Sequence record: ON075799
Direction: 5' to 3' (one strand)
Source: Escherichia phage vB_EcoM_TH18
DNA: 64,000 nucleotides
Below the pieces are notes generated by a model. It was not told the origin of the DNA, searched no databases, and saw only the letters and a program-made list of their open reading frames with translations. Numbering within the stretch: position 1 is the stretch's first letter; each line of letters begins with the position of its first letter. This document shows, in pieces, positions 1,903 through 28,750 of this stretch. The position numbers were made by a program, and so were the translations under genes.

Positions 1903-1904
1903 CT

Positions 1905-3512: not shown

Positions 3513-3583
3513 ACCATAGAGGGTAGTTTACCACGAATAACGATAAAAATAAAGCCCTTATCATTAAATAAGGGCATTGTCAA

Positions 3584-3877: not shown

Positions 3878-4275
3878 TTCACCCCCAGACTATCGTTATA
3901 AATATCAACAAACTGGTTATCTAGGCAAACCTGTTTTCCTGCTTGTGTTTTGCTATAACTTTTAACCTTTTTATCAAGGTCTTCTTTCAGTTGGTTATTA
4001 ATTTCTCTCTCTTTCACCAACATGGTTGACAACTCATCGATCTTATCCTGCTGTTGTTTTTTAAAAGCGTTGTTGTGATCTCTAACTTGCTGGTTAATCC
4101 TCTCCCATTTAAGGTCAGTATCGCTGACACCTGCGTTGTAGGATGATGTTAACTGGTCATTATACCAATGCTTTATCTCCACAACACCCCAAACGAGCAT
4201 CACACAACACAAAACGACACCTATCTGTTTTATGTTCTTAGAAAAGAAAGTTAACAGCGTTTTAAACCATATCAT
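3874..4275 (-). CDS. i-spanin-like protein (N-terminal TM helix plus coiled coil)
   Basis: 133 aa; hydrophobic N-terminus (IGVVLCCVMLVWGVV) followed by charged heptad-rich region. Confidence 0.55.
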   Translation of the reverse strand: MIWFKTLLTFFSKNIKQIGVVLCCVMLVWGVVEIKHWYNDQLTSSYNAGVSDTDLKWERINQQVRDHNNAFKKQQQDKIDELSTMLVKEREINNQLKEDLDKKVKSYSKTQAGKQVCLDNQFVDIYNDSLGVK

Positions 4276-5609
4276 GATATATCACCATCACACTCAATAA
4301 TATTTTCAATCTTCAACGTTGTTTTTCTGTTTTCAGAAATACACAGACTATTAAAATTGCTAATATCGTACTGGATCTTAGATGTATCGCTTACAGAAAC
4401 CTCTAACAGAACTGCTCCAGGCTGATATATTGTAAACCCATAACTATCTCCCTCCCCGTTCTCACACAGAATTTTGTACTCTCCTCTTGCCTCCGCTTCA
4501 TCAACATAAAGTCTGAGAGTTGGAAAATTATTTGCTATATCTTCTTTGTGAAGCCCAACATGATGTTTATCTTTTGTTGGCATCATGAGATAGAAAACTT
4601 CCGCAGGACAAACTCCATATAGTTTTGTAAAATATTTCCTACCTGTTGCTTTTCTTAATCTTTGGAAAATACTGAACATATTAACTTTAGATACATCATT
4701 AAACGGCAACGGTTGCACAGGGGTAACATTTTTGTCTACCTGCTGGCAACAAGATTCTAATCTGTCTAGGAACTCAACCAAAGAATCAAGTGAAAACTGT
4801 TTTGTCTCATCAAAGATATCTGACAGTTTCATTCCGTACATCCCGCTAAGATGTGACTTTGCCGATTCCCAACTTTCTATCTGAAGGCTGGCAATAGCCA
4901 TAGCCAGTTTCATTGTCTCTTTTTTCGAAATTGTATAGCCACGAGATTTGTATTTTTCAGATCTCAAAAGTGATATAATCGGGTATTCAGTCTTATGATT
5001 TACAACTAAGACTCTTTGAGCAATATGTTTTAAGAAATTGCTATCAAATTCCCACACACCATCCTTGAAGTTAAAAGCGCCCATGTTGATTGTAAAATCA
5101 ACTTTGCTAAAGATATCTTCTGTTGTTTTGAACACATCCACAGCAACACACTGTAATACAGGATCCTGCCCAAAGTACAGCGTTACGCTCTTATCTGTCA
5201 CACCAACTCTGGTAAGATTTGGGAGATCATCTTCTTCAAGATGAAAATTTTCACATCTGGACAAAGGGTCTGTGAAACATAAATGCGTATCCTGCCCATT
5301 ATCAAGGTTATAAAAATACCTAAAAGTTCTTTTTTGATTTTCCCATCCGTTTGTCTGTGCGGTTAAATCATACTTTCCACTTAAAAGATTTTTATCCATC
5401 ATGTACGCAATGAATATCTCAAGATTTTCCCAAGATGGGAAATACAAATCAAGATCGTTGACTTTACTATTAGAGAACAAAGAGGTTATTGCCCCGCCAG
5501 CTATCTTAACATCCAGCTTCGACAATAAATCATAAACACCTTTTGGTATAAAAGAGCACAAAATGTCGTACTCTCTTTGAAAATCTTCTTTTTTGAAAAC
5601 ATGCAACAT
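4272..5609 (-). CDS. Pol-beta-superfamily nucleotidyltransferase-fold protein, function unknown
   Basis: Start refined to MLHVFKK (ATG at 5609); motif IAGGAITSLFSNSKVNDLDLYF fits the hG[GS]-x9-13-DhD nucleotidyltransferase signature; long C-terminal domain unassigned. Confidence 0.55.
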   Translation of the reverse strand: MLHVFKKEDFQREYDILCSFIPKGVYDLLSKLDVKIAGGAITSLFSNSKVNDLDLYFPSWENLEIFIAYMMDKNLLSGKYDLTAQTNGWENQKRTFRYFYNLDNGQDTHLCFTDPLSRCENFHLEEDDLPNLTRVGVTDKSVTLYFGQDPVLQCVAVDVFKTTEDIFSKVDFTINMGAFNFKDGVWEFDSNFLKHIAQRVLVVNHKTEYPIISLLRSEKYKSRGYTISKKETMKLAMAIASLQIESWESAKSHLSGMYGMKLSDIFDETKQFSLDSLVEFLDRLESCCQQVDKNVTPVQPLPFNDVSKVNMFSIFQRLRKATGRKYFTKLYGVCPAEVFYLMMPTKDKHHVGLHKEDIANNFPTLRLYVDEAEARGEYKILCENGEGDSYGFTIYQPGAVLLEVSVSDTSKIQYDISNFNSLCISENRKTTLKIENIIECDGDIS

Positions 5610-5660
5610 CTTAGCTATCCTTAAGTACAAAACAAGATGCGTAGAGACTAGCACATAAAG

Positions 5661-5682
5661 AAAAACCCCGCAAGAGGCGGGG
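5661..5682 (-). terminator. rho-independent terminator downstream of the tRNA cluster
   Basis: Hairpin ccccgc-aagag-gcgggg with A-run on plus strand (U-run on minus-strand transcript). Confidence 0.55.
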
Positions 5683-5814
5683 TTAGGCATAGGAGAGGAG
5701 ATTGATTGGATTATTATTATAGTTATTTGAGAAAAGTGGCGAAGGAACCTTTACATGTCGAGAGTGTCTTACCGTTTACTCAGCCACGACCCTCCTTAGT
5801 GTCCACTTTAATTC

Positions 5815-5893
5815 TGGTTGCGAGTATTGGAATCGAACCTGCAATCTTCAGGGTATGAACCTAACATGGTAAATCCATTTCCACCAATCTGCA
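5815..5893 (-). tRNA. degenerate tRNA-like element (anticodon-loop CAU; weak acceptor and T stems)
   Basis: Canonical T-loop GGTTCGATTCC, D stem and anticodon arm TTAGG-TTCATAC-CCTGA present, but T stem and acceptor have several mismatches. Confidence 0.3.
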
Positions 5894-5899
5894 ATAATT

Positions 5900-5975
5900 T
5901 GGTGTGACGGACAGGATTCGAACCTGTGACCACCTAGTCTTCAGCAAGGCACTCTACCAACTGAGTTACCGTCAC
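5900..5975 (-). tRNA. tRNA-Phe (anticodon GAA)
   Basis: Manual cloverleaf: acceptor GTGACGG/CCGTCAC, D arm ACTC/GAGT, anticodon loop CTGAAGA, T loop TTCGAAT, encoded CCA. Confidence 0.8.
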
Positions 5976-5980
5976 ATAAT

Positions 5981-6057
5981 TGGTGGGCGATGAGGGACTC
6001 GAACCCCCAAAATTCAGGTTCTAAGCCTGACATGTATACCAATTCCATCAATCGCCC
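5981..6057 (-). tRNA. tRNA with anticodon UAG (Leu-reading) but short variable arm
   Basis: Acceptor GGGCGAT/ATCGCCC, anticodon arm TCAGG-CTTAGAA-CCTGA, T arm GGGGG-TTCGAGT-CCCTC, CCA encoded; D stem has one mismatch. Confidence 0.55.
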
Positions 6058-6071
6058 ATCTATATTAACAG

Positions 6072-6263
6072 TTATGGTTTTCCACGATACACAGAAATAG
6101 TTTTCCCATTAGCATTGATAACATAAGCGGTCTGATCCTCAGACAAAAACACTTTTTGATCAATGCCGGAAATAGCTATAGACTTTTGATGAGCACAATA
6201 CCCAACAATTTTCCCACAAAAAATTTGTTCATCATTTGGAGAGACGACTTTAACTGTTAACAT
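6072..6263 (-). CDS. small hypothetical protein (63 aa) inside the tRNA cluster
   Basis: Start refined to MLTVKVV with RBS agagga 6 nt upstream; the longer ORF-track start would overlap tRNA-Pro. Confidence 0.45.
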   Translation of the reverse strand: MLTVKVVSPNDEQIFCGKIVGYCAHQKSIAISGIDQKVFLSEDQTAYVINANGKTISVYRGKP

Positions 6264-6305
6264 GGTATCCTCTGTACATTTCTGCTTTGATATGTTTATG
6301 TTTGT

Positions 6306-6383
6306 TGGTCTGTCCGGTTGGATTTGAACCAACGACCTGGTCATCCCAAGTGACCCGCGCTACCCAAGCTGCGCTACGGACAG
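6306..6383 (-). tRNA. tRNA-Pro (anticodon UGG)
   Basis: Perfect cloverleaf: acceptor CTGTCCG/CGGACAG, D arm GCGC/GCGC, anticodon arm GGTCA-CTTGGGA-TGACC, T loop TTCAAAT, CCA encoded. Confidence 0.85.
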
Positions 6384-6467
6384 AGAAATGTAGATTTTAA
6401 TTGTCCCAGAATCTACTAACTGGTATCGCTGGCTAGGTGATATCTGTGACTTGATTAAGTCAAGAAT

Positions 6468-6559
6468 TGGCGGTTCCTGAAGGATTCGAACCTTCGGTGG
6501 GGAGATTCATTCCCAACGGCTTAACAGGCCGTCACCATCGACCACTCGGTCAAAGAACC
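6468..6559 (-). tRNA. type II (long variable arm) tRNA with anticodon GUU; identity uncertain
   Basis: 92 nt; acceptor GGTTCTT/AGGAACC (one G-U), anticodon arm ACGGC-CTGTTAA-GCCGT, ~20 nt variable arm, T arm GAAGG-TTCGAAT-CCTTC, CCA encoded. Confidence 0.55.
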
Positions 6560-6568
6560 TGAATATTT

Positions 6569-6645
6569 TGGTGGATCTGGTTGGGGTCGAACCAACAATC
6601 TCTCGATTAAAAGTCGAGTGACTTAAACCATTTGGCTACAAATCC
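6569..6645 (-). tRNA. tRNA-Lys (anticodon UUU), weak D arm
   Basis: Acceptor GGATTTG/CAGATCC, anticodon arm CTCGA-CTTTTAA-TCGAG, T arm GTTGG-TTCGACC-CCAAC, CCA encoded; D stem poorly paired. Confidence 0.55.
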
Positions 6646-6663
6646 GTTAAATTATCTTTAAAA

Positions 6664-6691
6664 TAGCTAATTACTCGCACATAATTAGCTA
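6664..6691 (-). terminator. hairpin plus U-run (terminator-like) within tRNA cluster
   Basis: Inverted repeat tagctaatt...aattagcta followed on the minus strand by TTTTAAAGA. Confidence 0.3.
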
Positions 6692-6878
6692 TACGCAACA
6701 ACTCTCCAAGGAGAGCACACTAATGATCGATTACGATTATATGACTAAATTTAGACCATCATAAGTGTTTGGCTTACGCCAGTAAAGAGCGGACTGCTCT
6801 GGGGTATCGGTAAGATGGTTGCAGCCATCTACCGAAAAATCACACCAAGCAACTAAACAAGCTACATTAAAGATAACT

Positions 6879-6967
6879 TGGAGGAGGCTGACAGAATCGA
6901 ACTGTCACCATATCTCTACAGCGGGACTGGGTTCAAACCAGCTTGTGCACCATGCACCCCAGCCTCC
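6879..6967 (-). tRNA. tRNA-Ser (anticodon UGA), type II
   Basis: 89 nt; acceptor GGAGGCT/AGCCTCC, anticodon arm GCTGG-TTTGAAC-CCAGT, long variable arm, T arm GACAG-TTCGATT-CTGTC, CCA encoded. Confidence 0.7.
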
Positions 6968-7038
6968 AAAGATAGCCTCTGCCGAGGATATACACCCAAC
7001 AAAGGAGGCGCTCAGGTCAGAAGAAATCTGAGCCTTAA

Positions 7039-7132
7039 TGGAGGAAGATGCCAGACTTGAACTGGCACACCCATTTCTGGGTTACTATCTCCTTAGCAGG
7101 GAGATCCCTTACCAAATTAGGGTTAATCTTCC
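7039..7132 (-). tRNA. tRNA-Ser (anticodon GCU), type II
   Basis: 94 nt; acceptor GGAAGAT/ATCTTCC, 3-bp D stem, anticodon arm TCTCC-CTGCTAA-GGAGA, T arm GCCAG-TTCAAGT-CTGGC, CCA encoded. Confidence 0.75.
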
Positions 7133-7153
7133 AATACCTTAGTAATTAAAAAC

Positions 7154-7243
7154 TGGTGGAGAAGGAGAGAATCGAACTCTCAAGCCGTTTTACCAGTCAG
7201 CACATTTCCAATGTGCTTTCGTCGCCAATCGATTTGCTTCTCC
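7154..7243 (-). tRNA. tRNA-Ser (anticodon GGA), type II
   Basis: 90 nt; acceptor GGAGAAG/CTTCTCC, anticodon arm GCACA-TTGGAAA-TGTGC, long variable arm, T arm GAGAG-TTCGATT-CTCTC, CCA encoded. Confidence 0.65.
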
Positions 7244-7252
7244 GTTTTAACT

Positions 7253-7328
7253 TGGCAGGGGATGGTTGATTCGAACAACCGATCACGGGGTCAAAGCCCG
7301 TTGCATTAGGCCACTATGCTAATCCCCT
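7253..7328 (-). tRNA. tRNA-Gln (anticodon UUG)
   Basis: Perfect cloverleaf: acceptor AGGGGAT/ATCCCCT, D arm GCAT/ATGC, anticodon arm ACGGG-CTTTGAC-CCCGT, T loop TTCGAAT, CCA encoded. Confidence 0.85.
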
Positions 7329-7333
7329 TTTGC

Positions 7334-7410
7334 ACGAGAGTGAGGAATAGAACCTCTTAGTCACTGGTTTTGGAGGCCAGCCTTCACCCAGTGAAGTTAC
7401 GCTACTCTCA
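7334..7410 (-). tRNA. non-canonical tRNA-like element
   Basis: Good acceptor (TGAGAGT/ACTCTCG) and T-loop-like GGTTCTATTCC, but D and anticodon regions do not fold into standard arms; no encoded CCA. Confidence 0.3.
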
Positions 7411-7417
7411 TTAAAAA

Positions 7418-7975
7418 CTATTTTCGAAAAGGACTTATGAAAAATGCCAACATCACTCTCTCTCTTGAAAAAGCTCTGTCTTCAGGAACCACACTCTTCA
7501 GTTTCCAACCGACATAAATTCGCCAGTAAAATTGTTTTCCAAACAATCTAAAAGACGGGACAAACGCGAATACACCCCACGCATTGTCATTCCACATCAA
7601 CAAATAGCCTTGTTGGTTATCCTCCACATCAGAGCTTACATGGAGGTTTCCTTTCCACTTTGTCACAGATGTGATTTCACGTCCAAGTACGTGATAGGAG
7701 AAATTGTAGGCTTTATTTCTCCACAACCAAGCAACTCGTTGTAGGTAAACACCAAAACTTCCTATTTTACGGACTTCTTCCCATCTCTCTATGTGTCCTC
7801 TATCACCGTCTATAGGATTATCATATGTCTCCATCCACCTGAAAATATAAGGCAGATGCCCTGTCTTCTCATTATAGAACGGAACAACAAAAGGAGCCAG
7901 AATAACACAGAGAACCGACATAACTGGGTCAAGAGGTGCTAACAGGATCCACGATAAATATTTTAAGTATCTCAT
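7418..7975 (-). CDS. hypothetical protein (185 aa, hydrophobic N-terminus)
   Basis: ORF from six-frame track; start overlaps stop of upstream gene (ATGA). Confidence 0.5.
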   Translation of the reverse strand: MRYLKYLSWILLAPLDPVMSVLCVILAPFVVPFYNEKTGHLPYIFRWMETYDNPIDGDRGHIERWEEVRKIGSFGVYLQRVAWLWRNKAYNFSYHVLGREITSVTKWKGNLHVSSDVEDNQQGYLLMWNDNAWGVFAFVPSFRLFGKQFYWRIYVGWKLKSVVPEDRAFSRERVMLAFFISPFRK

Positions 7976-8202
7976 GCAGGATCAAGCCTAGATATAATGT
8001 ACTGGTTTAAATCTGAATATGGGAAGATACTTTCAAAGATAACCTGTTTAAATCTGAAGCCGCACAAACCGAAAAGTACCTTCTGACACTCACCAAAAGA
8101 GCAATCTTTACCAACTTTTATCACAACCGTATCGGCAATCTGCACACTTTCTATCTCTTTAGATTCATGATGCCGTACTATGATTACTTTAGAAACCATC
8201 AT
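7972..8202 (-). CDS. hypothetical protein (76 aa)
   Basis: ORF from six-frame track; translationally coupled to downstream gene. Confidence 0.45.
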   Translation of the reverse strand: MMVSKVIIVRHHESKEIESVQIADTVVIKVGKDCSFGECQKVLFGLCGFRFKQVIFESIFPYSDLNQYIISRLDPA

Positions 8203-8327
8203 ACTCGTCCATATTAAAGCCTTCTACTAAAGATAGTAGATGTCTAGGGTTGGACCGCAAACGCAACCCCATGGAATTTGTTACGGTCTTCAGTTGACCC
8301 AAGCGGATTTCATTGACATCTTTTAAC

Positions 8328-8402
8328 TGGAGCATCCAGAGGGTATCGAACCCTCGACTTCAGCTTGGAAGGCTGTAGTTTTCCCAATTAAACTATGGAT
8401 GC
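8328..8402 (-). tRNA. tRNA-Gly (anticodon UCC)
   Basis: Acceptor GCATCCA/TGGATGC, D arm GTTT/AAAC, anticodon arm (A)CAGC-CTTCCAA-GCTG, T arm GAGGG-TTCGATA-CCCTC, CCA encoded. Confidence 0.75.
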
Positions 8403-8407
8403 ATATT

Positions 8408-8483
8408 TGGTGGGAGTGGTAGGCTCTGCCCCTACGTCCTCTCGATTATCGGTCGAGCGATCTACTAACTGATCTACACTCCC
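8408..8483 (-). tRNA. tRNA-like cloverleaf with Ile-type anticodon GAU but non-canonical D and T loops and C at position 33
   Basis: All four stems perfectly paired, CCA encoded, but D loop AGTTAGTA lacks GG, T loop is GGCAGAG (no TTC), anticodon loop is CCGATAA. Confidence 0.5.
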
Positions 8484-8546
8484 AAACTGTACTGGCCCAA
8501 CAACCACGATTGGAGGGTATCGTCACACATCAAAGCCAGTACAGTT
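8484..8546. other. long perfect hairpin (13-bp stem, ~37-nt loop) between two tRNA genes
   Basis: aaactgtactggc (8484-8496) and gccagtacagttt (8534-8546) are exact reverse complements. Confidence 0.6.
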
Positions 8547-8551
8547 TTAGT

Positions 8552-8641
8552 TGGTGTGCCGTGATAGAGTCGAACTACCCGAGTCCCTTTCGAGACAGGA
8601 GATTTACAGTCTCCCCCGCTACCCCTACGGTCTAACGACAC
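8552..8641 (-). tRNA. tRNA-Tyr (anticodon GUA), type II
   Basis: 90 nt; acceptor GTGTCGT/ACGGCAC (one G-U), anticodon arm GGAGA-CTGTAAA-TCTCC, long variable arm, T loop TTCGACT, CCA encoded. Confidence 0.7.
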
Positions 8642-8642
8642 A

Positions 8643-8990
8643 TTAACCTTGTTTGAATTGAACAATATCCGTCGAGAACGGTTTAGCTGCCTTAATAGGT
8701 GCTTTTTCTGAGTTATCTTTTTCGAGTAACTCTTCGTTTTCCTCATCAAAGTAATCAGAAAGCATCTGCTCACCTTTCTCAATAACATAACGAGCTATAT
8801 TTTCTCTGATATTGTCTTTTGTATTCACATTCTTCATCAAATCCCTAAGAACCTGATGAGCTTCAGGAATCATTGCAATCAGATTCGTTTTTAAATCTAG
8901 GATATTTTTCTCTAACTGAATTGCATTAGATTCCTCTTTCAGAGGACGACCTTTTCCTCTTCTACGTTTTGTAAGCTGCTTAGTAGCCAT
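8643..8990 (-). CDS. hypothetical protein (116 aa, basic N-terminus)
   Basis: Start refined to MATKQLTKRRRGKG; the longer ORF-track N-terminus overlaps the tRNA cluster; sigma70-like promoter just upstream. Confidence 0.5.
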   Translation of the reverse strand: MATKQLTKRRRGKGRPLKEESNAIQLEKNILDLKTNLIAMIPEAHQVLRDLMKNVNTKDNIRENIARYVIEKGEQMLSDYFDEENEELLEKDNSEKAPIKAAKPFSTDIVQFKQG

Positions 8991-9009
8991 TTTAAAACCC
9001 CACTTAATG

Positions 9010-9039
9010 ATATTATCAAATAAAAACATATCTGTCAAG
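9010..9039 (-). promoter_or_regulatory. sigma70-like promoter (TTGACA, 18-nt spacer, TAATAT)
   Basis: Minus strand reads TTGACA...TAATAT shortly upstream of the ATG at 8990. Confidence 0.5.
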
Positions 9040-9075
9040 TGGTATTTTAACATATTTACCAAGAAATTGAAAGTT

Positions 9076-9152
9076 TGGAGCACGGTGTCGGACTTGAACC
9101 GACATATATCTGTTTTGCAGACAGATCCGTAACCAAATTCCAGCAACCGTGC
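9076..9152 (-). tRNA. tRNA-Cys (anticodon GCA)
   Basis: Acceptor GCACGGT/ACCGTGC, anticodon arm TCTGT-CTGCAAA-ACAGA, T arm GTCGG-TTCAAGT-CCGAC, CCA encoded; D stem weak. Confidence 0.65.
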
Positions 9153-9228
9153 AATAAGTACCCCAGGTAGAGAACCTATAGAGTGGGTCTTACGAGCCGC
9201 GCTGACGATTCTCAAGTTGGGGTTAATC

Positions 9229-9305
9229 TGGTCGAGGAGACAGGATTCGAACCTGTGACCTACGGCTTAGAAGGCCGCTGCTCTATCCAACTGAGCTACA
9301 CCCCG
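9229..9305 (-). tRNA. tRNA-Arg (anticodon UCU)
   Basis: D arm GCTC-AGTTGGATA-GAGC, anticodon arm GCGGC-CTTCTAA-GCCGT, T arm ACAGG-TTCGAAT-CCTGT, CCA encoded; acceptor has one mismatch. Confidence 0.7.
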
Positions 9306-9505
9306 AAAATAAGAATGCTTTATAGTGTATGGTTACTCAACCTCACTCCAACTTCCACAGTTGGTGCTCTACGAGCATGACTACGTTTGAAATCAACGTT
9401 GCGCACCGATAGCTTTCTCACGCATTGTATGCCTCATTCCCAACAAATGCTGATCAGACATTTATATCGAATAATATAAGCTAATACACTATAAAACAAA
9501 CTTGT

Positions 9506-9602
9506 GGCTGGGTGATGGAATCGAACCACCTATGTATTCAACGGCTTCCCCGTCTATTTTCAGGATTATAAATCCTCGCCCTTGCCAAAGGGCTTACCCA
9601 GC
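9506..9602 (-). tRNA. over-long (97 nt) tRNA-like element, anticodon arm ambiguous
   Basis: Perfect acceptor (GCTGGGT/ACCCAGC), D arm GCCC-TTTGGCAA-GGGC, T arm GGTGG-TTCGATT-CCATC; central region has only a 4-bp stem with loop TTTATAA and ~30 extra nt; no encoded CCA. Confidence 0.35.
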
Positions 9603-9604
9603 AT

Positions 9605-9679
9605 TGGTGCTCGCAGCAGGTTTCGAACCTGCAACCCCCTGCTTACAAGGCAGGTGCTCTACCGTTGAGCTATACGAGC
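9605..9679 (-). tRNA. tRNA-Thr (anticodon UGU)
   Basis: Acceptor GCTCGTA/TGCGAGC, D arm GCTC/GAGC, anticodon arm CCTGC-CTTGTAA-GCAGG, T arm GCAGG-TTCGAAA-CCTGC, CCA encoded. Confidence 0.85.
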
Positions 9680-10044
9680 AATAAGACATTGCTTCCGATT
9701 AACAGCCTTGAGGCTTTACAGACCATATCTTGTGAGCCATAACCTGTGCCAAGGATTTCAGATGATAAACGAAATTTTATCTTTCAAGAGTCAACTTTCA
9801 AGTTTCATCTTTTACATTTAACCATTGACCTTTATTGTATGAACTTTTACTTAGTGGAAACAACAAGGCATCTTCGTGTGCCTCGCTGCATCTATGTCCT
9901 GTATTATCCTCATACATATACGATACATGGTGGGGGATATTTAACCTCCAACCCCCAGGAGGCAAGATGATGTAAACTTCGTTAATCAAAAGCAATGTTT
10001 TAAATTTCAAAACAAAGGAACGATAATGATATTATCAGAGCCTT

Positions 10045-10692
10045 TTAGAGAGAGTGCTCAATCTCAATTTCTGTCTTAGCGTTTGACTCAGACAACGCAA
10101 AATCAACGTTAGACAAGAAATCTTCAATCTCTTCTTCAAGAGAACGAATCTTAGAAGCCAGTTCAAGAGGATCCACAACCGATGGTGTGTTCATCATTCG
10201 AATAGGAGCTTCCACAGTCTTAATCTGCTCTGCATCTGGCGCTTTATCACGTTGGATATATGGCGCTCTTGCATTTTCAAGTTTATCTTCCAGAGATTTT
10301 TCTTCTTTTGCCAGAAGAAGCTGTGCAGAAGCACGCTGTGCACAAAGTTTGTTTAACAACTCTTGTTTAAAGCAAATCGTCCGTTTGCGTTCGATTGCCT
10401 CAGCAACTGTCATAGACACATTACCAATTTTGACAATTGTCTCAGCATTAGACTTAACAATTTTTGCTTTCAGTTCATCACGCACTGCCAAGAGGTCTTG
10501 CAGACTTTGATAGTCGTTGATCGCAGATTTCTTAAAATCATCAACAGAGCCGATATAACCCGGAATCTTACAATTATTCTCAGTTCCTTTTGCAATCTTA
10601 ATACAATCAAGATTGTAGATACGCTTATTGATCTTATCTTCAATTTTAGAGATAGAAGCAAGTGCACGAGTTACGGAAATCTTAGTAGACAT
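10045..10692 (-). CDS. hypothetical protein (215 aa, charged coiled-coil-like)
   Basis: ORF from six-frame track; charged, heptad-like composition. Confidence 0.55.
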   Translation of the reverse strand: MSTKISVTRALASISKIEDKINKRIYNLDCIKIAKGTENNCKIPGYIGSVDDFKKSAINDYQSLQDLLAVRDELKAKIVKSNAETIVKIGNVSMTVAEAIERKRTICFKQELLNKLCAQRASAQLLLAKEEKSLEDKLENARAPYIQRDKAPDAEQIKTVEAPIRMMNTPSVVDPLELASKIRSLEEEIEDFLSNVDFALSESNAKTEIEIEHSL

Positions 10693-10765
10693 GCGATCTC
10701 TCCTATGTAAATCAGCTTTGATAAAGTAACTATCCAGAAAAACAAAAACTATGTCAAGAAAAATT

Positions 10766-10957
10766 TTAATCTTTTACAGCATCTTTTATAGAATCACAAA
10801 GATCTTGAACAACATCAGATGTCGGTGACAAAATCATCTCGTCGGCTGCTGCTATAGCATCTGATGCTAAATCAACAAACGGAGTTGTTACCGCAGAAGT
10901 CACTTCAACAGCCGTTATTGTTACTTCGCTTGCAATCTTAAGCAAAGATCCTATCAT
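10766..10957 (-). CDS. hypothetical small acidic protein (63 aa)
   Basis: ORF from six-frame track in an otherwise gene-free gap. Confidence 0.4.
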   Translation of the reverse strand: MIGSLLKIASEVTITAVEVTSAVTTPFVDLASDAIAAADEMILSPTSDVVQDLCDSIKDAVKD

Positions 10958-11033
10958 AATCTCAACCCTCCTGAATATCCGTGATTCCCTTTATTTAACG
11001 ACGCTGGCTCACGGTGGCACTCTCGTCAATAAA

Positions 11034-11357
11034 CTATTTTTTAGTTTTCTTACCGTTTTCTACAGAAATGCTTGTTTTCTGTTTCGCTTCTCGTTCGCGC
11101 TTTGTTTTCCCAGTGCGAATACGATATGAAGCAGAAATAACTTCACCACCAATGACACGAGACACAGATTCGTAATACATTTCAGTATTACCGTCTTCAT
11201 CTTTGCGTTTTTTCAGAACTGCTACAGTTTGCGTTTTACCACCAAGGCGCACATCGTGCGGTGCAGAATGTGTCTGCGTGGATTTTGATCCAAACTGAAA
11301 AGGTTGCTTTATCGCCTCGATAGCTGACACCTTTTTAGCAGACTGTTTCTTAGCCAT
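11034..11357 (-). CDS. hypothetical basic protein (107 aa)
   Basis: Start refined to MAKKQSAKK with strong RBS ggagga upstream; lysine/arginine-rich. Confidence 0.55.
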   Translation of the reverse strand: MAKKQSAKKVSAIEAIKQPFQFGSKSTQTHSAPHDVRLGGKTQTVAVLKKRKDEDGNTEMYYESVSRVIGGEVISASYRIRTGKTKREREAKQKTSISVENGKKTKK

Positions 11358-11408
11358 TAAGTTTTCTCCTCCGAAAACAATAAACATAGTTTATTTCGTG
11401 TGCCACAT

Positions 11409-11485
11409 TTGGTGGCCCCTGCTGGACTTGAACCAGCGACCAAGCGATTATGAGTCACCTGCTCTATCCAACTGAGCTAAGGGGC
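11409..11485 (-). tRNA. tRNA-Met (anticodon CAU; initiator/elongator/Ile2 not distinguished)
   Basis: Acceptor GGCCCCT/AGGGGCC, D arm GCTC-AGTTGGATA-GAGC, anticodon loop CTCATAA, T arm GCTGG-TTCAAGT-CCAGC, CCA encoded. Confidence 0.8.
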
Positions 11486-11818
11486 CGAATCTCTTAATAT
11501 GAGATGATATTATCCTGTATGATCTACATTGTCAAGAGATATTTTAAAATTTTATACATCCCAGTTTTCTTCTTGATAACAACCTTCCCCGAATCCAACT
11601 TCTTTTTCAAAATCAATACCTTTTTTCATACATTCCTCACATTAACAGATATTGTTTTCAAACTCAAAACGTAAAATACGAACTCTGTCAATACACTGCT
11701 GTAATCTACAAAGCAACAACTCAACTTGTTTATGCGTCTCTTCAGTATACGTTTTGGTCATCTTGCTTTTCTCCGTGATCTTTTCATTGCAGCTTCTGCA
11801 CGTCTTTGTTTACGATTT

Positions 11819-12067
11819 TTAGATGGTTGTTCTAAGGATCCTGATAACGTACTTTGTTGTGCTAATCCCTTCGATGGGGTAGAAATAATATAATCCCCCT
11901 TCTTCACCGAACGATGCAATATATTTCCAGGATTCAATTCCAAAACCAGTTGTAGAAAAAGCGACATCATCCGCTTCTTCAAGCGCATCATCATGTGTTT
12001 TATGGAAAGACTCATGTTCTACGTACTCCCCGTTATCAGACTTAAGAACCATTTTTAATTTAAACAT
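11819..12067 (-). CDS. hypothetical acidic protein (82 aa)
   Basis: ORF from six-frame track with ggtga RBS-like sequence upstream; preferred over the overlapping frame 11758..12015. Confidence 0.45.
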   Translation of the reverse strand: MFKLKMVLKSDNGEYVEHESFHKTHDDALEEADDVAFSTTGFGIESWKYIASFGEEGGLYYFYPIEGISTTKYVIRILRTTI

Positions 12068-12135
12068 AACAAATCACCACTAATTTTATTTTTATCTTGT
12101 TATTAGATCTTATCAGTGGTGTTTATTTTTGTCAA

Positions 12136-12342
12136 TTAAACTATTCCAAAAGCCTTGACACCACGCTCGTATTCTGCTACTGCAAGCTCATGAGGAGAAA
12201 GGTCACATGAGGCATCCTTGCAAAGACCGACTTCGATGTAATGTTCTTCTAGTCCATCAAGGATATCTGGCTCCCACGCTTTTTTCATGTCTGGATGGAC
12301 TGATGCACGATTTCTATCGTACTTCGCTACGAGATTTCTCAA
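12136..12342 (-). CDS. hypothetical protein (68 aa)
   Basis: ORF from six-frame track, downstream of the nadV terminator. Confidence 0.45.
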   Translation of the reverse strand: MRNLVAKYDRNRASVHPDMKKAWEPDILDGLEEHYIEVGLCKDASCDLSPHELAVAEYERGVKAFGIV

Positions 12343-12354
12343 AACATTCTCCTC

Positions 12355-12382
12355 AAAATAAAAACCCCTCCATGTGGAGGGG
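12355..12382 (-). terminator. rho-independent terminator after nadV
   Basis: Hairpin cccctcca/tggagggg preceded on the plus strand by an A-run (U-run on the minus transcript). Confidence 0.55.
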
Positions 12383-12395
12383 AATGATTATGGTG

Positions 12396-14111
12396 TTAAA
12401 GCTGTGATAAGGCTCTTTGGCGAATTTCTTCAAGATCCTCATCCACAAGCAGCTTACCATTAACAAAAACTGTTCTAAGCTCGTTATCATGGTCAGATAC
12501 TTGGTTAATACCAAGATTATCTACCAGCTTCAACTCGCCATCATCACCACGAATAACTTTAACAAAACCTTTCGCAGATTTCTTCCCAAGATCAGTCTTA
12601 GGCTCTTTTACGACCATTACTTGTCTGCCATCAATCACAGCACCAGTAGCTTTTACAGCCATCCCAAGAGAATCACGGGTTGTATATTGCGTTGTATAAG
12701 ACCCTACACCAAACACAATGTTACTGGAAGCAAACCCTCGTTCTTCAAGGCGCTCAAAGATCTCTTTAGCACGGGAGATTGTGATAGAGTCTCCGTAGAT
12801 TAAACCAACATGGCTATCAAGAACTTTGTAACCCAAAGAGTTTACACTACCACCAAAGATTTCCCACAAGCATTGTACAGCACCCTTAACTTCCTCTTTT
12901 GTCAGATAATTTGTAAATTCATCACCTGTCAAAGATTTCCAATCTACGAGGTTGCCTTCCGAATCTCGCATCCATGAAGTGTCTCTGGACATCTCGTATA
13001 AAGTGACATATTTGCCATTTTTAAACAGCACAGCATCCATGTCACAGCACTGCCCCGTTGCCCATTCTTCCTGAGAGCACACGCGATAACCAGCAATGAT
13101 GTGCTCTGGGATCCCACTGTCAGGTCGGAAGACCAGCTTGCCATCACGAGACATAATCTCATCTTTCAGGATTTTTGCTGCCTGTGTAATGATTGCCCAA
13201 AAATCATAGCTGTCAGCGACGTATGAAGCATAACCTGATGGGAAAATCTCTGTCACATAACGCTTTAAGAACTCAACTTCAGCACGAAAACGTGCTTCAT
13301 CAAGCGGCATATCAGGATTTTCCTGCTGGATACGCTCAACAATAAAACCAATGTTCGTTGTCGCTACGCTATGCTCAGATGCGGGAATAGACCCAGCAAC
13401 AAAGCGACCTTTCATGTTGTAATAGCGATTTGCGTAAACAATCGCTGGAATTGTATCTGTGCCCATTGAGCTAATCAGTTGCCCAAATTCGCTCTGTGCT
13501 GCGTCATGTGTTCCAGCTTCACCACGGTATGCAAAACAATGGTTCTGGAAAGGAACATGATCGTTGTTATCACATGTTTTCTTTGCCCACAGTTCTGATA
13601 GTTTACGGTATTGCCAGAAAGTCGTTGCCGTGGTAATTGTCTTCCAAGTCTCCGATGAGATCACGCTCTCAAGGAAGTTCGGCAGCCAGTAAAAATCAGG
13701 ATGCGTGTTCTGAATCGTGAACATGGGAACCTGAACAGGAACAAGAGTTCCTTCAGGCAAAGCCCTAATTTCAATTGGGAGATAACCAAGGTCATGCAAT
13801 TTCTCAAAACCCCAAGTTTCAACAGCATCCTTCCCAATGCTCAAATCACAAATCTCTTTGTAATCCTGAATCGCCTTTTCTTTCGGTAAAGCGAAGAAAT
13901 TATTATTAAACATGTCGATCAGGAACCACTTGATAAATCCCTGAAGACCTGCAAACATCACACGATGGTCATCATCTGCAAAGTGTACAAAGTGTTTCAC
14001 ATTGCGTGGGGTCATGTTGTCTTGAACAAACTGTGAACGTCTATCGTACATCGAGATGTGACTTGGTTTATAAAAATCTGCGAACAGCAATGGACTTTCT
14101 TTGTGAAGCAT
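12396..14111 (-). CDS. nadV: nicotinamide phosphoribosyltransferase (NAMPT/NadV family)
   Basis: 571 aa; overall resemblance to the NAMPT family by eye (not searched); adjacent to a PRPP synthetase gene. Confidence 0.7.
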   Translation of the reverse strand: MLHKESPLLFADFYKPSHISMYDRRSQFVQDNMTPRNVKHFVHFADDDHRVMFAGLQGFIKWFLIDMFNNNFFALPKEKAIQDYKEICDLSIGKDAVETWGFEKLHDLGYLPIEIRALPEGTLVPVQVPMFTIQNTHPDFYWLPNFLESVISSETWKTITTATTFWQYRKLSELWAKKTCDNNDHVPFQNHCFAYRGEAGTHDAAQSEFGQLISSMGTDTIPAIVYANRYYNMKGRFVAGSIPASEHSVATTNIGFIVERIQQENPDMPLDEARFRAEVEFLKRYVTEIFPSGYASYVADSYDFWAIITQAAKILKDEIMSRDGKLVFRPDSGIPEHIIAGYRVCSQEEWATGQCCDMDAVLFKNGKYVTLYEMSRDTSWMRDSEGNLVDWKSLTGDEFTNYLTKEEVKGAVQCLWEIFGGSVNSLGYKVLDSHVGLIYGDSITISRAKEIFERLEERGFASSNIVFGVGSYTTQYTTRDSLGMAVKATGAVIDGRQVMVVKEPKTDLGKKSAKGFVKVIRGDDGELKLVDNLGINQVSDHDNELRTVFVNGKLLVDEDLEEIRQRALSQL

Positions 14112-14174
14112 GATCTCAACCCTCCAACCTAAAAGCGTATTTTTTCACTAAAACGTATCTTTGTCAAGATGTAA

Positions 14175-14984
14175 TTAAAAATTTTCTGTCCAGTCGTAGT
14201 ACGCATAGATTTCGTCAACGCCACCGTTGAGAATAAATTCTTTCCCACGAGAGAAAATCCCATGCGTGACATACAAGATAACACGTTTAGCACCAGCAGC
14301 TTTCAAGGCTTGAGCTAAGTTTGTAAACGTAAACCCACCATCGCAGATATCATCAACAATCAGGCACATCTTCCCATCGACATCACCAAACACTGTTGTG
14401 CCTGTGATTGCCCCTGTTCCCACATCACGGATTTTACCAGCTTCAACCACAGATAGTTCCAAGGCATCAGCTACCTTCTGGGTCTTCTTGCGTGCACCTG
14501 CATCTGGAGCAACCAACACAAGCGATTCGTCCGTAAGCAGATCAAAATCAAACTTCATGTTCAAGAACAATTCAGTCTGAGAACGAATTTTCACGTTATC
14601 AAGCAGTGCTGCGGATACGTCACTGTGTGGGTCATCGACGATGACTTTGTGGAAACCCAGCGAGTTAATCATTGTGGCAAAGACTTTCACCGACAGAGCT
14701 TCACCAGGGTTCATAACTCGGTCTTGTCGAGCATACGGGATGTACGGCAGGTGTAAAACCTTTTCCACACCAACATCCAAATTGCCAAGACGATTGACTG
14801 CATCAACAAGCAACGCAAGACACATCACATCTTGGGAGTGCTTAATGCGAGCGAAGATATCCACAAAACCAATCGAACCCTTAGGGATATAGTGCATATC
14901 GATCTTCACCTGCTCCTCACCACCACTGAAGGTAAAATGGTCAACTGGAACATGCAACTTGTTCAAACTCAAACGAATATTCAT
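14175..14984 (-). CDS. prs: ribose-phosphate pyrophosphokinase (PRPP synthetase)-like
   Basis: Motifs PYIPYARQDR, VAPDAGARKK and PRPP-binding LIVDDICDGGFT match the Prs family pattern. Confidence 0.7.
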   Translation of the reverse strand: MNIRLSLNKLHVPVDHFTFSGGEEQVKIDMHYIPKGSIGFVDIFARIKHSQDVMCLALLVDAVNRLGNLDVGVEKVLHLPYIPYARQDRVMNPGEALSVKVFATMINSLGFHKVIVDDPHSDVSAALLDNVKIRSQTELFLNMKFDFDLLTDESLVLVAPDAGARKKTQKVADALELSVVEAGKIRDVGTGAITGTTVFGDVDGKMCLIVDDICDGGFTFTNLAQALKAAGAKRVILYVTHGIFSRGKEFILNGGVDEIYAYYDWTENF

Positions 14985-15382
14985 GATTTATCTCCTCTAG
15001 CACGATTGACGATAATATAATTTCTTGGTTTCACGTTACCATCAGAATCCTGAAATCCTGATCTGACACGCCTGACATAACCAAAGCTCTCCATCCGAGA
15101 CAGAAATTCAGACACTTTGGTTCGTGAGTTTTCGTTCCACCCCAACAGACCACACAAGGATTGCTGTGACGGAAAGAATACCAGTTCCCCACCCAAGGGG
15201 TTCCGACTCTTGAAATACTCGTATCTCCACAACAAGCGTATCAGTCTTTGCAGATCGCTTGGTGATAACCGTTCATCAAAAACCCACTCTGTCGGCACAG
15301 CGATGTACGACCCAGCTTTCGGATTTACATGGAAACCCCCAACATTCGATTTCAAGGCAAACTCCGGTGTGTAATTCAACAC
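14981..15382 (-). CDS. hypothetical protein (133 aa)
   Basis: ORF from six-frame track; first minus-strand gene beside the AT-rich strand-switch region. Confidence 0.5.
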   Translation of the reverse strand: MLNYTPEFALKSNVGGFHVNPKAGSYIAVPTEWVFDERLSPSDLQRLIRLLWRYEYFKSRNPLGGELVFFPSQQSLCGLLGWNENSRTKVSEFLSRMESFGYVRRVRSGFQDSDGNVKPRNYIIVNRARGDKS

Positions 15383-15452
15383 CGAGAATGCTACTCATAA
15401 CACCACACAATGTCAACCCCTCCCATATGTCCCCATTTCAGGGACATTATGA

Positions 15453-15540
15453 TCTAATATAATATATATTATATAATATAATTTAATATAATACTACGTA
15501 TTATATATATTATAATATATATATATAATTTATATAAAAT
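15453..15540. repeat. AT-only low-complexity repeat tract (TA/ATA-type)
   Basis: ~90 nt of taatataatatatattatataatataatttaatataat... between divergent gene blocks. Confidence 0.8.
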
Positions 15541-15640
15541 ACACTAAGTCTTGAAGAATGTCAAGACTTGATTTTAAATATTTTTGTTGATATGATTCGA
15601 TTGAGTCGAATCGTATGGTTCGATGATTTCGAATCATAGA
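15541..15640. promoter_or_regulatory. cluster of palindromes at the divergent intergenic region
   Basis: agtcttga-agaatg-tcaagact, gattcga-ttgag-tcgaatc and atgattTCGAAtcat dyads next to the AT tract. Confidence 0.5.
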
Positions 15641-15976
15641 GTTCATGTTGTTTTGCCTGAAATCGTGAGTCGATGAGACTCTTCAGGCAATACGTGAGTG
15701 TGTAAGATGCTCACTGCGCTGATAGCTTGTGATCATCTAACCCTCATGAGCCATTCTGAGATAAACCCACATCAACAAACCCCACAGGTTTGTCTCTGTG
15801 TGTTAATCTCAATCATGGATTCGGGTTGTCACAAGTCACTATGTGACTCTGTGTGGGGATTTCGAATGTGTACCGGAGCATGGCGCACAGGACTGGTTCA
15901 TCTGTCCGTCTCAACTGGGGCGCGGCGGGGGTTAAGGTTTAGTTTTACGTTTTGTGTGGGTGTGGAGGAGAGTTTT

Positions 15977-16255
15977 ATGGCCTACGATGAAAATTCTATC
16001 CGGGTGCTGTCACCTGATGATATCAAACAACGATTTGACTGGGTACGCATCGGGGATTTGGTTCACGAATATAACTTACCTGTGGATTGGGTCAGACGTG
16101 GCTTTGAAGCGTGCTGGAGGTTAAACATCGAGCCTGATTATTTTATCAACAAGTACATCCTCAAGCAGGATGTTGAACCTGTACCTGATTTCGAGGTTGT
16201 TTTTAAAGAGATTGTTATGGAGTCTCGATTCAAGGATCAGGTATGCTCCAGGTAG
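15977..16255 (+). CDS. hypothetical protein (92 aa)
   Basis: Start refined to MAYDEN with RBS ggaggag 6 nt upstream. Confidence 0.55.
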   Translation: MAYDENSIRVLSPDDIKQRFDWVRIGDLVHEYNLPVDWVRRGFEACWRLNIEPDYFINKYILKQDVEPVPDFEVVFKEIVMESRFKDQVCSR

Positions 16256-16373
16256 TCTCAAAAACGCACCTGTGAATCAGATTTGCAAATGTAGTCCACA
16301 GATAGGTAAAAACATCAACGCAAATCGATTCTCCGCTGGATCTACAGAGTAAATTTTCAATTTTCGGAGAAAA

Positions 16374-16748
16374 ATGATGAAACGTACCATGACAGACAAA
16401 GAGCGCGAAATTGCCCTCCAGTTAGCAAGAGAAAAAAGAGAGCAACAAAAGCGAGAATGGGCTGCGCTGGCAGAAGCGGGAAAAATACGCCAACATTTCG
16501 CTGACGCTAATCACTGGGCAAGGCTCCGTAGTCAATACGGGATTACATCTCCGTACAAATTAGCTCCGGCAGAAAGTGATCATGGCATGAAAATTCTTAG
16601 ACGAACGATCAGACTGACCGGAGGATTCGAGTGGTTCAATGAGTCTTTCGGTATGGACATCAAGCAGTTTGTCAGAATGAACCCTACGTGGTCTGCATAC
16701 GCTATTCAGGGGGTAATCCTTGAAGAGTGGGATGATTATCAGAATTGA
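16374..16748 (+). CDS. hypothetical protein (124 aa)
   Basis: ORF from six-frame track with ggaga RBS. Confidence 0.55.
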   Translation: MMKRTMTDKEREIALQLAREKREQQKREWAALAEAGKIRQHFADANHWARLRSQYGITSPYKLAPAESDHGMKILRRTIRLTGGFEWFNESFGMDIKQFVRMNPTWSAYAIQGVILEEWDDYQN

Positions 16749-16841
16749 TTTTTGTTGTGTTTCTGGTAATCAACTGGTATGTTTATTACAGGGAGTGATA
16801 ACCACTCCCGTGTTACTTGTTTTATACAGGAGTATTAATAT

Positions 16842-17465
16842 ATGTCTTGGCCTTTTTTGATTTATCTTATTGATGTTCTTAGCACAGACGGGAAGTATGA
16901 AGGTTGGGGATTCTTGTTGTTTCTGTGTGTTATTGTATACATGCTGATGCGTATTCTTCCAAAGATCCTCGAAGAACCTAAGCTGGATATCTATCCAGGA
17001 CAAAACCTTGTTTTAGCACAAGACTGGTCACGATTTAAAGCCGGAGATGTTCTTGTTGTGAAGGATACTGCGGGTGGTGATGTTCTTCTTCGCCACGGGG
17101 AGGAATCACTTGGTTCTTGGGTGAGTAAGAGCATTTTACGAAAAGTGTGTAAACTTGATGAAAAACAAGGATATATCCCACAGCAAGATGCGATGGAAAC
17201 ACCGCGAAAGTTAACTGTGATTGCTATGGTTGTCTGTGTGATGGGTATTCTATACGCCAACTTCATGCCGCAGAAAGAGACTTCTTACAAGATGCTTGCT
17301 GCGTATGTTGGTCAAAACATTGTAGAATCTCCAAGGACTCAACAACTTGCGGATAGCACAATCAAGTATCTGGATGCCCAAATCAAGAAGTACACTCAAG
17401 AATTAGGTGATACTTCAGGAGTGGCGAGTAAGGATTCTAAGCCTGGTGAGAAGGTGAAAGAGTGA
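16842..17465 (+). CDS. hypothetical membrane protein (207 aa, 2-3 predicted TM segments)
   Basis: Hydrophobic stretches FLLFLCVIVYMLM and LTVIAMVVCVMGILYANF; aggag RBS. Confidence 0.55.
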   Translation: MSWPFLIYLIDVLSTDGKYEGWGFLLFLCVIVYMLMRILPKILEEPKLDIYPGQNLVLAQDWSRFKAGDVLVVKDTAGGDVLLRHGEESLGSWVSKSILRKVCKLDEKQGYIPQQDAMETPRKLTVIAMVVCVMGILYANFMPQKETSYKMLAAYVGQNIVESPRTQQLADSTIKYLDAQIKKYTQELGDTSGVASKDSKPGEKVKE

Positions 17466-17827
17466 TGGGAAAGTCATTTGAAACAAAACGAATAGCGTTG
17501 GACTTTGATGATACTTTCACGCTAGAGCCTGAGAGATGGTCACAATTTGTTGCTCTATTTGCAGCAAAGGATTCAGGTTGGTGTGTTAAATTTGTTACTT
17601 ATCGCTTCGATTCAGATGATAACTCTGATATCCAGTTTTGGGCTGAAAAACTAGGTATCGGAATAATTTATTGCAATGGTGTCCAGAAAGCACAAGTTTG
17701 TGCGGAACTTGGCTGGATCCCAGATGTGTGGATAGACGATTTTCCTGTTCTCATCCCTGTGAAACAACAACTACAGGGTATGCTTTTAGGGATAGAAAAT
17801 AACGAAGAAAAACATAATGTTAAGTAG
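17462..17827 (+). CDS. hypothetical protein (121 aa)
   Basis: ORF from six-frame track; start overlaps upstream stop (translational coupling). Confidence 0.5.
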   Translation: MMGKSFETKRIALDFDDTFTLEPERWSQFVALFAAKDSGWCVKFVTYRFDSDDNSDIQFWAEKLGIGIIYCNGVQKAQVCAELGWIPDVWIDDFPVLIPVKQQLQGMLLGIENNEEKHNVK

Positions 17828-28741: not shown

Positions 28742-28750
28742 GATAGTACA

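Follow-up and report, generated by a model that had tools for sequence, protein, structure and literature searches.

An A/T-rich intergenic element of Avunavirus phages as a candidate replication origin joined to a predicted divergent promoter region

A stretch of 64,000 nucleotides (nt), presented under the record ON075799 of Escherichia phage vB_EcoM_TH18 and hereafter called the window, was analysed around an intergenic element at positions 15420 to 15860, which is tentatively regarded here as a candidate replication origin. The phage was placed in Vequintavirinae, genus Avunavirus. A preliminary description of this DNA had located a minus-to-plus strand switch here, with an A/T tract followed by three palindromes, and had proposed a divergent promoter region with regulator sites or a DNA unwinding element. 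The strand switch was verified, with minus-strand genes on the left and plus-strand genes on the right, as in relatives, and all three palindromes are indeed present (15546-15569, 15594-15612 and 15617-15635). The element is one copy of a repeat whose promoter and leader head both a P block of small early-type genes and an M block (ligase, Sir2, ribonucleotide reductase). The features at the locus are the following.

14981..15382, minus strand: gene of a 133-amino-acid winged-helix protein of phrog_8453 (function unknown), directly left of the element; the open reading frame (ORF) is GenBank peg.110
15388..15416, minus strand: predicted promoter of the winged-helix gene, TTGACA-17-TAGCAT, just outside the repeat, from a promoter scan
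15420..15860, no strand: copy A of an inverted repeat of about 550 base pairs (bp), interrupted between 15447 and 15448
15427..15447, no strand: dyad repeat 1, ATGTCCC-cattTca-GGGACAT, with dyad 2 following 25 bp further on
15447..15448, no strand: artificial junction of OK136180 and OK136181, where about 106 nt of true sequence are absent
15451..15455, plus strand: last unit of a directional GATCT[A/T] cluster, which has three units in the relative Av-05
15455..15541, no strand: A/T tract and putative DNA unwinding element, two A/T-only runs with the least stable duplex
15486..15506, no strand: palindrome ATATAATAC-TAC-GTATTATAT (ATAATAC-TAC-GTATTAT), holding the only G/C bases inside the tract
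15536..15564, minus strand: predicted leftward promoter TTGACA-17-TATTTT, matching 10 of 12 consensus positions and pointing into the tract
15546..15569, no strand: palindrome 1, AAGTCTTGA-agaatg-TCAAGACTT, with 9-bp arms and a 6-nt loop, holding the -35 of the leftward promoter
15568..15596, plus strand: predicted rightward promoter TTGATT-17-TGnTATGAT (-10 extended by TG), counterpart by homology of TTGATT-16-TATAGT ahead of gp212 in PVP-SE1
15591..15636, no strand: two tandem 23-bp units with TTCGA-N5-TCGAA (palindromes 2 and 3), operator-like
15637..15860, plus strand: R, the right part of the repeat, a predicted and strongly structured 5' leader for rightward transcription, with an identical copy ahead of the M block
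15977..16255, plus strand: first plus-strand gene of the P block, 92 amino acids, phrog_18265, function unknown

The preliminary description had claimed a pure A/T tract of about 90 nt. The tract is present but it is not pure, since CTACG (C15494, C15497 and G15498) splits it into A/T-only runs of 39 nt (15455-15493) and 43 nt (15499-15541). No other such run in the window is as long, the third longest being 28 nt, and under a model of independent, identically distributed bases with 60% A+T only 4e-5 runs of at least 40 nt would be expected by chance. Additionally, nearest-neighbour free energies, calculated as the duplex stability check that had been suggested, identified the tract as the easiest-melting DNA in the window: its value of -0.871 kcal/mol per bp over 100 bp is the lowest stability found, 6.8 standard deviations away from the window mean of -1.297 kcal/mol per bp (standard deviation 0.063). 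Relatives in which the element is intact have an AT-rich tract that extends over about 140-170 nt and is nearly pure A/T. The palindrome ATAATAC-TAC-GTATTAT occurs twice per element in Av-05 and in the European Nucleotide Archive (ENA) scaffold_183 (L032), and in an altered form in ENA scaffold_96 (L031). The arrangement of the tract differs among strains and its composition and flanks are kept, which is expected if melting alone matters.

Two scaffolds of Escherichia phage 18-1-2, joined end to end, supply the window, which corresponds to their bases 64001-128000. A megablast of positions 14000-17500 against phage records demonstrated that 14000-15447 is 100% identical to the last 1448 bases of Scaffold1 (OK136180, 79,447 bp) and that the sequence from 15448 onward is 100% identical to Scaffold2 (OK136181, 54,435 bp) from its base 1; window 1-15447 corresponds to OK136180 64001-79447, that is, up to the scaffold end. 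The junction lies 5 nt left of the region of tract and palindromes first described, and the absent stretch of about 106 nt comprises dyad 2 (TGTCCCC-gtttt-GGGGACA), a CAATACTAAC...TTAAACTAAC block, two GATCT units and the first ATAATACTACGTATTAT motif, a small palindrome. Of this stretch, 79 nt are known from an overhang of the sister phage 24-2-1, the remainder being inferred from Av-05 (NC_025830, 92.5% identical), which crosses the junction site without a break. Two sister assemblies, 24-2-1 and 19-1-2, are interrupted at this site as well. That the low-complexity tract itself was made by assembly or concatenation at scaffold ends could be suspected from the splice and from the mis-scaffolded piece with an N gap that the GCA_002972075.1 scaffold carries here. 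However, the tract and palindromes recur in independent assemblies, namely Av-05, two ENA metagenome scaffolds, JZOQ01000111 and three marmot sister phages, which refutes an artefactual origin of the features and leaves it a vanishingly small probability; it applies just to the junction and the absent nucleotides.

To the left of the tract, the Avunavirus dyads TGTCCCC-N4/5-GGGGACA are two in number and phased at 25 bp, one in the window and one in the absent stretch. As judged from its sequence, the neighbouring 133-amino-acid product is a winged-helix DNA-binding protein, and it is a candidate for the cognate dyad-binding protein or for an initiator, a role that it may fulfil. In comparisons with PHROGs it matched phrog_8453 at 1e-52 and, weakly, families annotated as 'replication initiation protein' and 'DnaD-like helicase loader' (6.5e-4 and 1.7e-3), the orthologue from PVP-SE1 giving slightly better initiator values (2.7e-5). 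The family was also aligned by hhalign, with a probability of 65% and an E value of 6e-5, to the HTH_36 protein gp213 of PVP-SE1, which itself matches Pfam HTH_36 at 1e-10 and phrog_8102 'replication initiation protein' at 8e-30. A word-indexed homologue search with the 133-amino-acid protein returned one cluster. The -35 of the winged-helix gene promoter, GTTGACA, is kept in PVP-SE1, KNP2, Ro1, CR3, A7_1 and Hena1.

To the right of the tract, palindrome 1 is homologous to AAAAGACTTGA upstream of the gp212 promoter of PVP-SE1, palindrome 2 is GATTCGA-ttgag-TCGAATC (15594-15612, 7-bp arms) and palindrome 3 is GGTTCGA-tgatt-TCGAATC (15617-15635), in which 6 of 7 positions pair. The leftward promoter TTGACA-17-TATTTT is kept in every Avunavirus copy, and the rightward promoter is predicted to drive the P block at copy A or the M block at copy B. 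Transcription would accordingly be predicted to begin near 15529 on the minus strand and near 15603 on the plus strand. The divergent promoter region with regulator sites that had been proposed stands as a computational prediction, made up of back-to-back sigma-70-like promoters and TTCGA dyads. The proposed unwinding element is in the same position: the DNA is the least stable in the window and lies, in intact relatives, beside phased dyads, a GATCT cluster and the winged-helix gene, which amounts to a computational fit.

Such features also sustain the main rival reading, possible and to us only somewhat less plausible than an origin, in which the element serves transcription control without any replication role. 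In that case the promoters would be divergent early or middle promoters, the phased dyads operators of an autoregulating winged-helix protein and the TTCGA dyads operators of another phage regulator, with the A/T tract acting as an UP element, curved DNA or nucleoid-protein-binding DNA and the GATC cluster as Dam/SeqA-sensitive control. In its favour, promoter-like sites, all of them consensus matches only, are enriched, 7 being found against 3.5 +/- 1.9 in shuffles, and the two main ones are back to back, 4 nt apart. The TTCGA-N5-TCGAA units overlap the rightward promoter from -10/+1 to about +40, and TTCGA-N(4-6)-TCGAA was found nowhere else in 114 kilobases (kb) of 18-1-2 outside the element. 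Furthermore, the phased dyads lie at about -40 to -90 of the winged-helix gene promoter in five genera, and the element, being duplicated, stands at the head of two long operons that share one structured leader. On the other hand, 140-170 nt of nearly pure A/T far exceeds promoter needs, the GATCT cluster is unique genome-wide in PVP-SE1, and at copy B of the Avunavirus repeat the neighbour on the dyad side is a convergent gene, adjoining with its 3' end, which leaves the dyads there without a promoter to regulate.

The predicted leader (15603-15976, plus strand) folds at -134.5 kcal/mol, with z = -4.49 against shuffles, and lies mostly inside the repeat, hence upstream of both P and M operons. 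It might act as an RNA in regulation or antitermination; an Rfam search with the element of Av-05 returned no family, the sole match being mir-327 at 21 bits versus a gathering score of 76 bits. A terminator scan flagged 15545-15570 on both strands as a weak bidirectional hairpin, with G-C pairs making up just 3 of the 9-10 in its stem. No gene reads into this hairpin at copy A, and at copy B palindrome 1 could end transcripts reading through from the convergent operon with which scaffold 1 starts. It was also observed that the 10-mer GATTTCGAAT of palindrome 3 (15625-15634) recurs exactly at 15858-15867, where the repeat has its right boundary, and does so just on the P side; it may mark a recombination or duplication boundary.

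The organisation of the element is shared by Av-05 and ENA scaffold_96, in which the promoter of the 133/141-amino-acid gene (outside the repeat) is followed by two dyads, the CAATACTAAC...TTAAACTAAC block, three same-strand GATCT[A/T] units and 140-170 nt of A/T, then by palindrome 1 with the leftward promoter, the rightward promoter with its TTCGA dyads, and the structured leader. ACTAAC direct repeats lie between the dyads and the GATCT cluster of the Avunavirus element. The left half of the module was found upstream of the orthologous winged-helix gene in PVP-SE1, KNP2, Ro1, Hena1 and A7_1, and in Seunavirus, Mydovirus, Henunavirus and A7_1 the winged-helix promoter, dyads, CAATACTA(AC) block, AT-rich DNA, GATCT cluster and opposing promoter follow one another in that order. 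The dyad half-sites vary by genus (TGTCCCC, TATTCCC, TATGCCC), as does their number, with two dyads in Seuna-, Mydo- and Henunavirus and four in Vequintavirus. The GATCT cluster consists of three units in Av-05 and four in PVP-SE1, where it is the sole GATCT[A/T] cluster in the 146-kb genome, and A7_1 has five GATC in about 60 bp. Certrevirus CR3 retains AT-rich dyads and the GATCT cluster, and its phased dyads and CAATACTA block are not clearly recognisable. Scans of viral and metagenome collections for CAATACTAAC-N(6-9)-TTAAACTAAC returned only Ro1, PVP-SE1, KNP2, Av-05, one related metagenome contig and two unrelated matches.

In the Vequintavirus Gotham, the module takes up a 660-bp gap whose two flanking genes run in one direction, at a distance of 1.5 kb from the strand switch (itself 120 bp long), and it consists of four dyads TGTCCGT-atc-ACGGACA with a phase of about 21-22 bp, of ACTAA repeats and of AT/GATC DNA. 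This position away from the strand switch indicates that the module is a cis element in its own right, more than a by-product of divergent promoters, and it counts against a function in transcription only, as the dyad/AT/GATC module lies 1.5 kb from the divergent promoter region and downstream of its winged-helix gene. The neighbouring Gotham gene belongs to phrog_12838, which carries the tentative label 'replication initiation protein'. Between the Gotham module and the next gene there is a 260-nt G+C-rich unannotated stretch that looks structured (MT682716, about 96,459-96,720; L030 16,460-16,720), for which no Rfam family was found at threshold.

The right half of the Avunavirus element (palindrome 1, rightward promoter and leader) is homologous to the promoter region upstream of gp212 in PVP-SE1, which has its own dyad pair TGCAAATTTTGCA beside the winged-helix gene gp213. 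Judging from this, two modules that lie apart in Seunavirus seem to have been fused in the Avunavirus element. A homologue of gp213 was not found in the Avunavirus DNA examined, and self-BLAST of PVP-SE1 gave no second copy of the element, only a weak 38-nt match leading to the gp213 module. That second origin-like/promoter module of Seunavirus, at NC_016071 131,525-131,798 (L014 31,525-31,798), comprises two TGCAAATTTTGCA dyads 26 bp apart directly downstream of gp213, then a stretch of AT-rich DNA containing a single GATC, and finally the promoter TTGATT-16-TATAGT.

Because phased dyads, an extreme A/T tract, GATCT repeats resembling those of enterobacterial origins, the gene of a cognate-looking binder nearby and a promoter directed into the tract together fit the pattern of known origins, the element is tentatively interpreted as an iteron-plus-unwinding-element replication origin of the lambda or P1 type, activated by transcription as in T4 and T7 and fused to a divergent promoter region, a reading that we hold to be quite plausible if somewhat short of probable. 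It is not mutually exclusive with a function in transcription: if the long A/T tract and the Gotham arrangement are set aside, these features suit a plain divergent promoter region with an autoregulator. In an origin of this kind, the two phased dyad repeats would bind the adjacent small winged-helix protein, the A/T tract of about 140-170 nt in its intact form would melt as a DNA unwinding element, and the leftward sigma-70-type promoter would transcribe into the tract, as in transcription-activated origins; the operator-like TTCGA-N5-TCGAA dyads would act at the rightward promoter that they overlap, which would feed the structured leader. What we infer from these features is that a protein binds the dyads, that the tract melts, that the promoters are active and that replication starts at the element. 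Multiple phased repeats, as expected of an iteron origin, are seen in the sequences of Avuna-, Seuna-, Mydo-, Henuna- and Vequintavirus, and the adjacent AT-rich DNA, with its predicted ease of melting, is found at the same place in other sampled genera. In the literature library searched, no proposal of a replication origin for rV5-like phages (Vequintavirinae) was found.

Comparison with known origins brings out likenesses and differences. In phage lambda, ori-lambda consists of four iterons inside the O gene, beside an AT-rich region, and the O protein is a winged-helix binder. The element likewise has phased repeats with internal dyad symmetry (6-7-bp arms around an A/T-rich centre of 4-5 nt) beside AT-rich DNA and a further palindrome, the gene of a phage-encoded winged-helix protein, the presumed binder, lies nearby, and transcription from a nearby promoter would cross the region. 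However, there are two intergenic repeats here (four in Vequintavirus) instead of four inside a gene, the A/T tract is 3-4 times longer, and the GATCT cluster has no lambda counterpart. Unlike lambda O, the neighbouring protein has 118-141 amino acids and lacks a C-terminal helicase-loader-binding domain; it gave no significant match to Phage_rep_O, for which its paralogue gp213 reaches just 0.11.

The 13-mers of Escherichia coli oriC and the oriR of P1 present GATC-bearing AT-rich repeats beside iterons and a rep gene. In the element, same-strand A/T-rich repeats led by GATCT (e.g., GATCTATTTAATA) resemble the oriC 13-mer GATCTnTTnTTTT; they form a cluster next to the putative protein-binding repeats and to the gene of the presumed binder, the promoter of which adjoins those repeats. 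The differences are that the element has no DnaA boxes and that its repeats are dyads, as opposed to 19-bp direct iterons. In T4 ori(uvsY) and ori(34) and in the primary origin of T7, a promoter is followed by a downstream unwinding element and the transcript forms a primer or R-loop; here, the predicted minus-strand promoter at 15564->15536 similarly points into the easily melted tract. Those origins differ in having neither iterons nor a dedicated binding protein, and the promoter of the element is predicted to be sigma-70-like.

Several observations weigh against a replication origin. No DnaA box, that is, TTATNCACA with at most one mismatch, was found between 14865 and 16143, the window-wide count being that expected by chance, and a host DnaA-dependent origin was rejected on this ground. 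In Pfam and NCBIfam the 133-amino-acid protein gave sub-threshold, generic winged-helix matches, which also suits a mere transcriptional regulator; a PDB profile search with it yielded nothing significant, and hhalign of its family against the Gotham neighbour protein gave a probability of 7%. The members of this family, of 118-141 residues, are devoid of any helicase-loading domain. Additionally, the dyads stand just upstream of the -35 of the winged-helix gene itself, which equally fits plain autoregulation, and the long, nearly pure A/T expansion is specific to Avunavirus, the AT-rich part in Seunavirus being about 70 bp. AT-rich DNA upstream, or a cluster of GATC sites, is also encountered at ordinary promoters that are strong or under Dam control. 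GC skew turns at the element but tracks gene strand throughout the window, and it was discarded as origin evidence.

The element occurs in two inverted copies, whose left boundary was set by comparing the U1-end and U1-start flanks and whose right boundary was set from the P-side and M-side flanks. Intact, it measures 548 bp in Av-05 (L001 4421-4968), and in ENA scaffold_96 it takes up an intergenic gap of 557 bp. Scaffold1 begins with the reverse complement of the left part (99 nt with dyads, conserved block and first GATCT), followed by unrelated genes, and Scaffold2 ends with that of the right part (about 120 nt), adjoined by the M block (Sir2, DNA ligase and others). In JZOQ01000111, a 551-nt piece joins the right half of the A/T tract, the three palindromes and R to the first M-block gene, and its element portion is identical to window 15486-15860, so copy B carries the same right part. 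Two inverted copies with these flanks imply a genome graph of U1 (79 kb), repeat, U2 (54 kb) and inverted repeat, and all four possible types of junction between repeat and unique segments were seen. Sixteen tRNA genes, detected with ARAGORN, are clustered on the minus strand at window 5,815-11,486, in the leftward arm.

Av-05 traverses copy A, joining the NAD arm to the P block, and breaks inside copy B, whereas ENA scaffold_96 (137,934 bp) traverses the element joining the NAD arm to the M block, an arrangement with which the synteny of PVP-SE1 agrees. Both orientations of the segment are therefore on record, yet each could be an arbitrary choice of the assembler. Within a lineage, strain-specific substitutions are common to the P-side and M-side copies, which indicates that the copies evolve in concert. 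It was accordingly considered, as a rather unlikely extension, that Avunavirus carries two identical origin-and-promoter modules as inverted repeats, that recombination keeps the copies identical and flips the 54-kb segment, giving two genome isomers per lysate, that one winged-helix protein fires both origins, and that the second module replaced the gp213-associated module of Seunavirus. A flip of the 54-kb segment is equivalent to a flip of the 79-kb core relative to the two arms of linear virion DNA. Chloroplast inverted repeats and herpesvirus oriS offer a parallel: there are two identical inverted copies on either side of a large unique segment, they show concerted evolution and contain origin-like sequence, and the two traverses available here show opposite segment orientations. 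Unlike those repeats, the present one is only 0.55 kb long, and its two isomers come from separate strains and assemblies instead of a single population. For inverted-repeat isomerisation in a tailed phage no precedent turned up, no in-depth search having been made.

The same data could be explained, although improbably in our view, if the element were chiefly a 0.55-kb inverted repeat for homologous recombination flipping the 54-kb segment, with the A/T tract as a slippage-prone, hypervariable spacer and without any sequence-specific function. The opposite joins of the NAD arm in the two full traverses, the concerted evolution of the copies and the strain-to-strain variation in the arrangement of the tract would all follow. 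However, the left half of the module is kept as a single copy in the other sampled genera, where inversion is impossible, and a 550-bp repeat can be resolved arbitrarily by assemblers, Av-05 being a demonstrably poor assembly, so that the two isomers are unproven.

It is also very improbable that the element is a direct terminal repeat or packaging start of virion DNA. Direct terminal repeats published for Vequintavirinae measure 459 bp in Gotham and 514 bp in KPP-1 (PMC7471380, PMC9862379), sizes similar to that of the element, and assemblies break at it. On the other hand, its copies stand in inverted and not in direct orientation, the unique sequences flanking them are four different ones, and the published repeats sit at a convergent junction among small genes. 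The conserved blocks of those repeats match window 30,008-30,050 and 30,201-30,222 rather than the element; a terminal repeat or packaging site was thus rejected in view of the inverted copies and of the homology of the published repeats to window ~30.0-30.2 kb. A separate observation concerns window 28,750-30,580, an ORF-poor stretch where the P and M blocks converge. The two blocks within it match the interior of the Gotham and KPP-1 terminal repeats and an unannotated gap of PVP-SE1, and this stretch is likely to be the site of the virion ends and terminal repeat.

The element is the breakpoint of all four Avunavirus assemblies in GenBank records and of most metagenome contigs, and seven ENA scaffolds, as well as Logan contigs from several runs, end inside it. 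Contigs spanning copy B from the P side were sought by exact-protein look-ups, and every Logan contig found ends at one point, inside R, about 60 nt short of the right repeat boundary; by the same look-ups, P1 and the 124-amino-acid protein were absent from the ENA scaffolds. The RefSeq 'complete genome' of Av-05 (NC_025830.1 / KM190144.1), the Avunavirus exemplar, proved to be chimeric between 102,827 and 102,828, where the record exits phage sequence inside dyad 1 of copy B and passes into T4-like DNA 100% identical to phage phiC120. It lacks the M-block end found in 18-1-2, and the true genome is about 134-138 kb rather than the 121 kb of Av-05. Phage contigs were also noticed inside two bacterial genome assemblies, JZOQ01000111.1 (GCA_002972075.1) and JZNW01000083.1. 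In the former, positions 1-562 link the 551-nt piece (repeat and M-block start) by a 10-N gap to a P-block contig, a scaffolding error caused by the repeat.

The inverted repeat thus explains the breaks of all four GenBank Avunavirus records and of most metagenome contigs, and both these breaks and the chimeric nature of Av-05 should be known to curators and to anyone comparing Avunavirus genomes. If the two copies do recombine, Avunavirus would represent a tailed phage with genome isomers. Finally, rV5-like phages are widely used in phage therapy and biocontrol, and the module provides a concrete and testable origin candidate that is common to the sampled genera.

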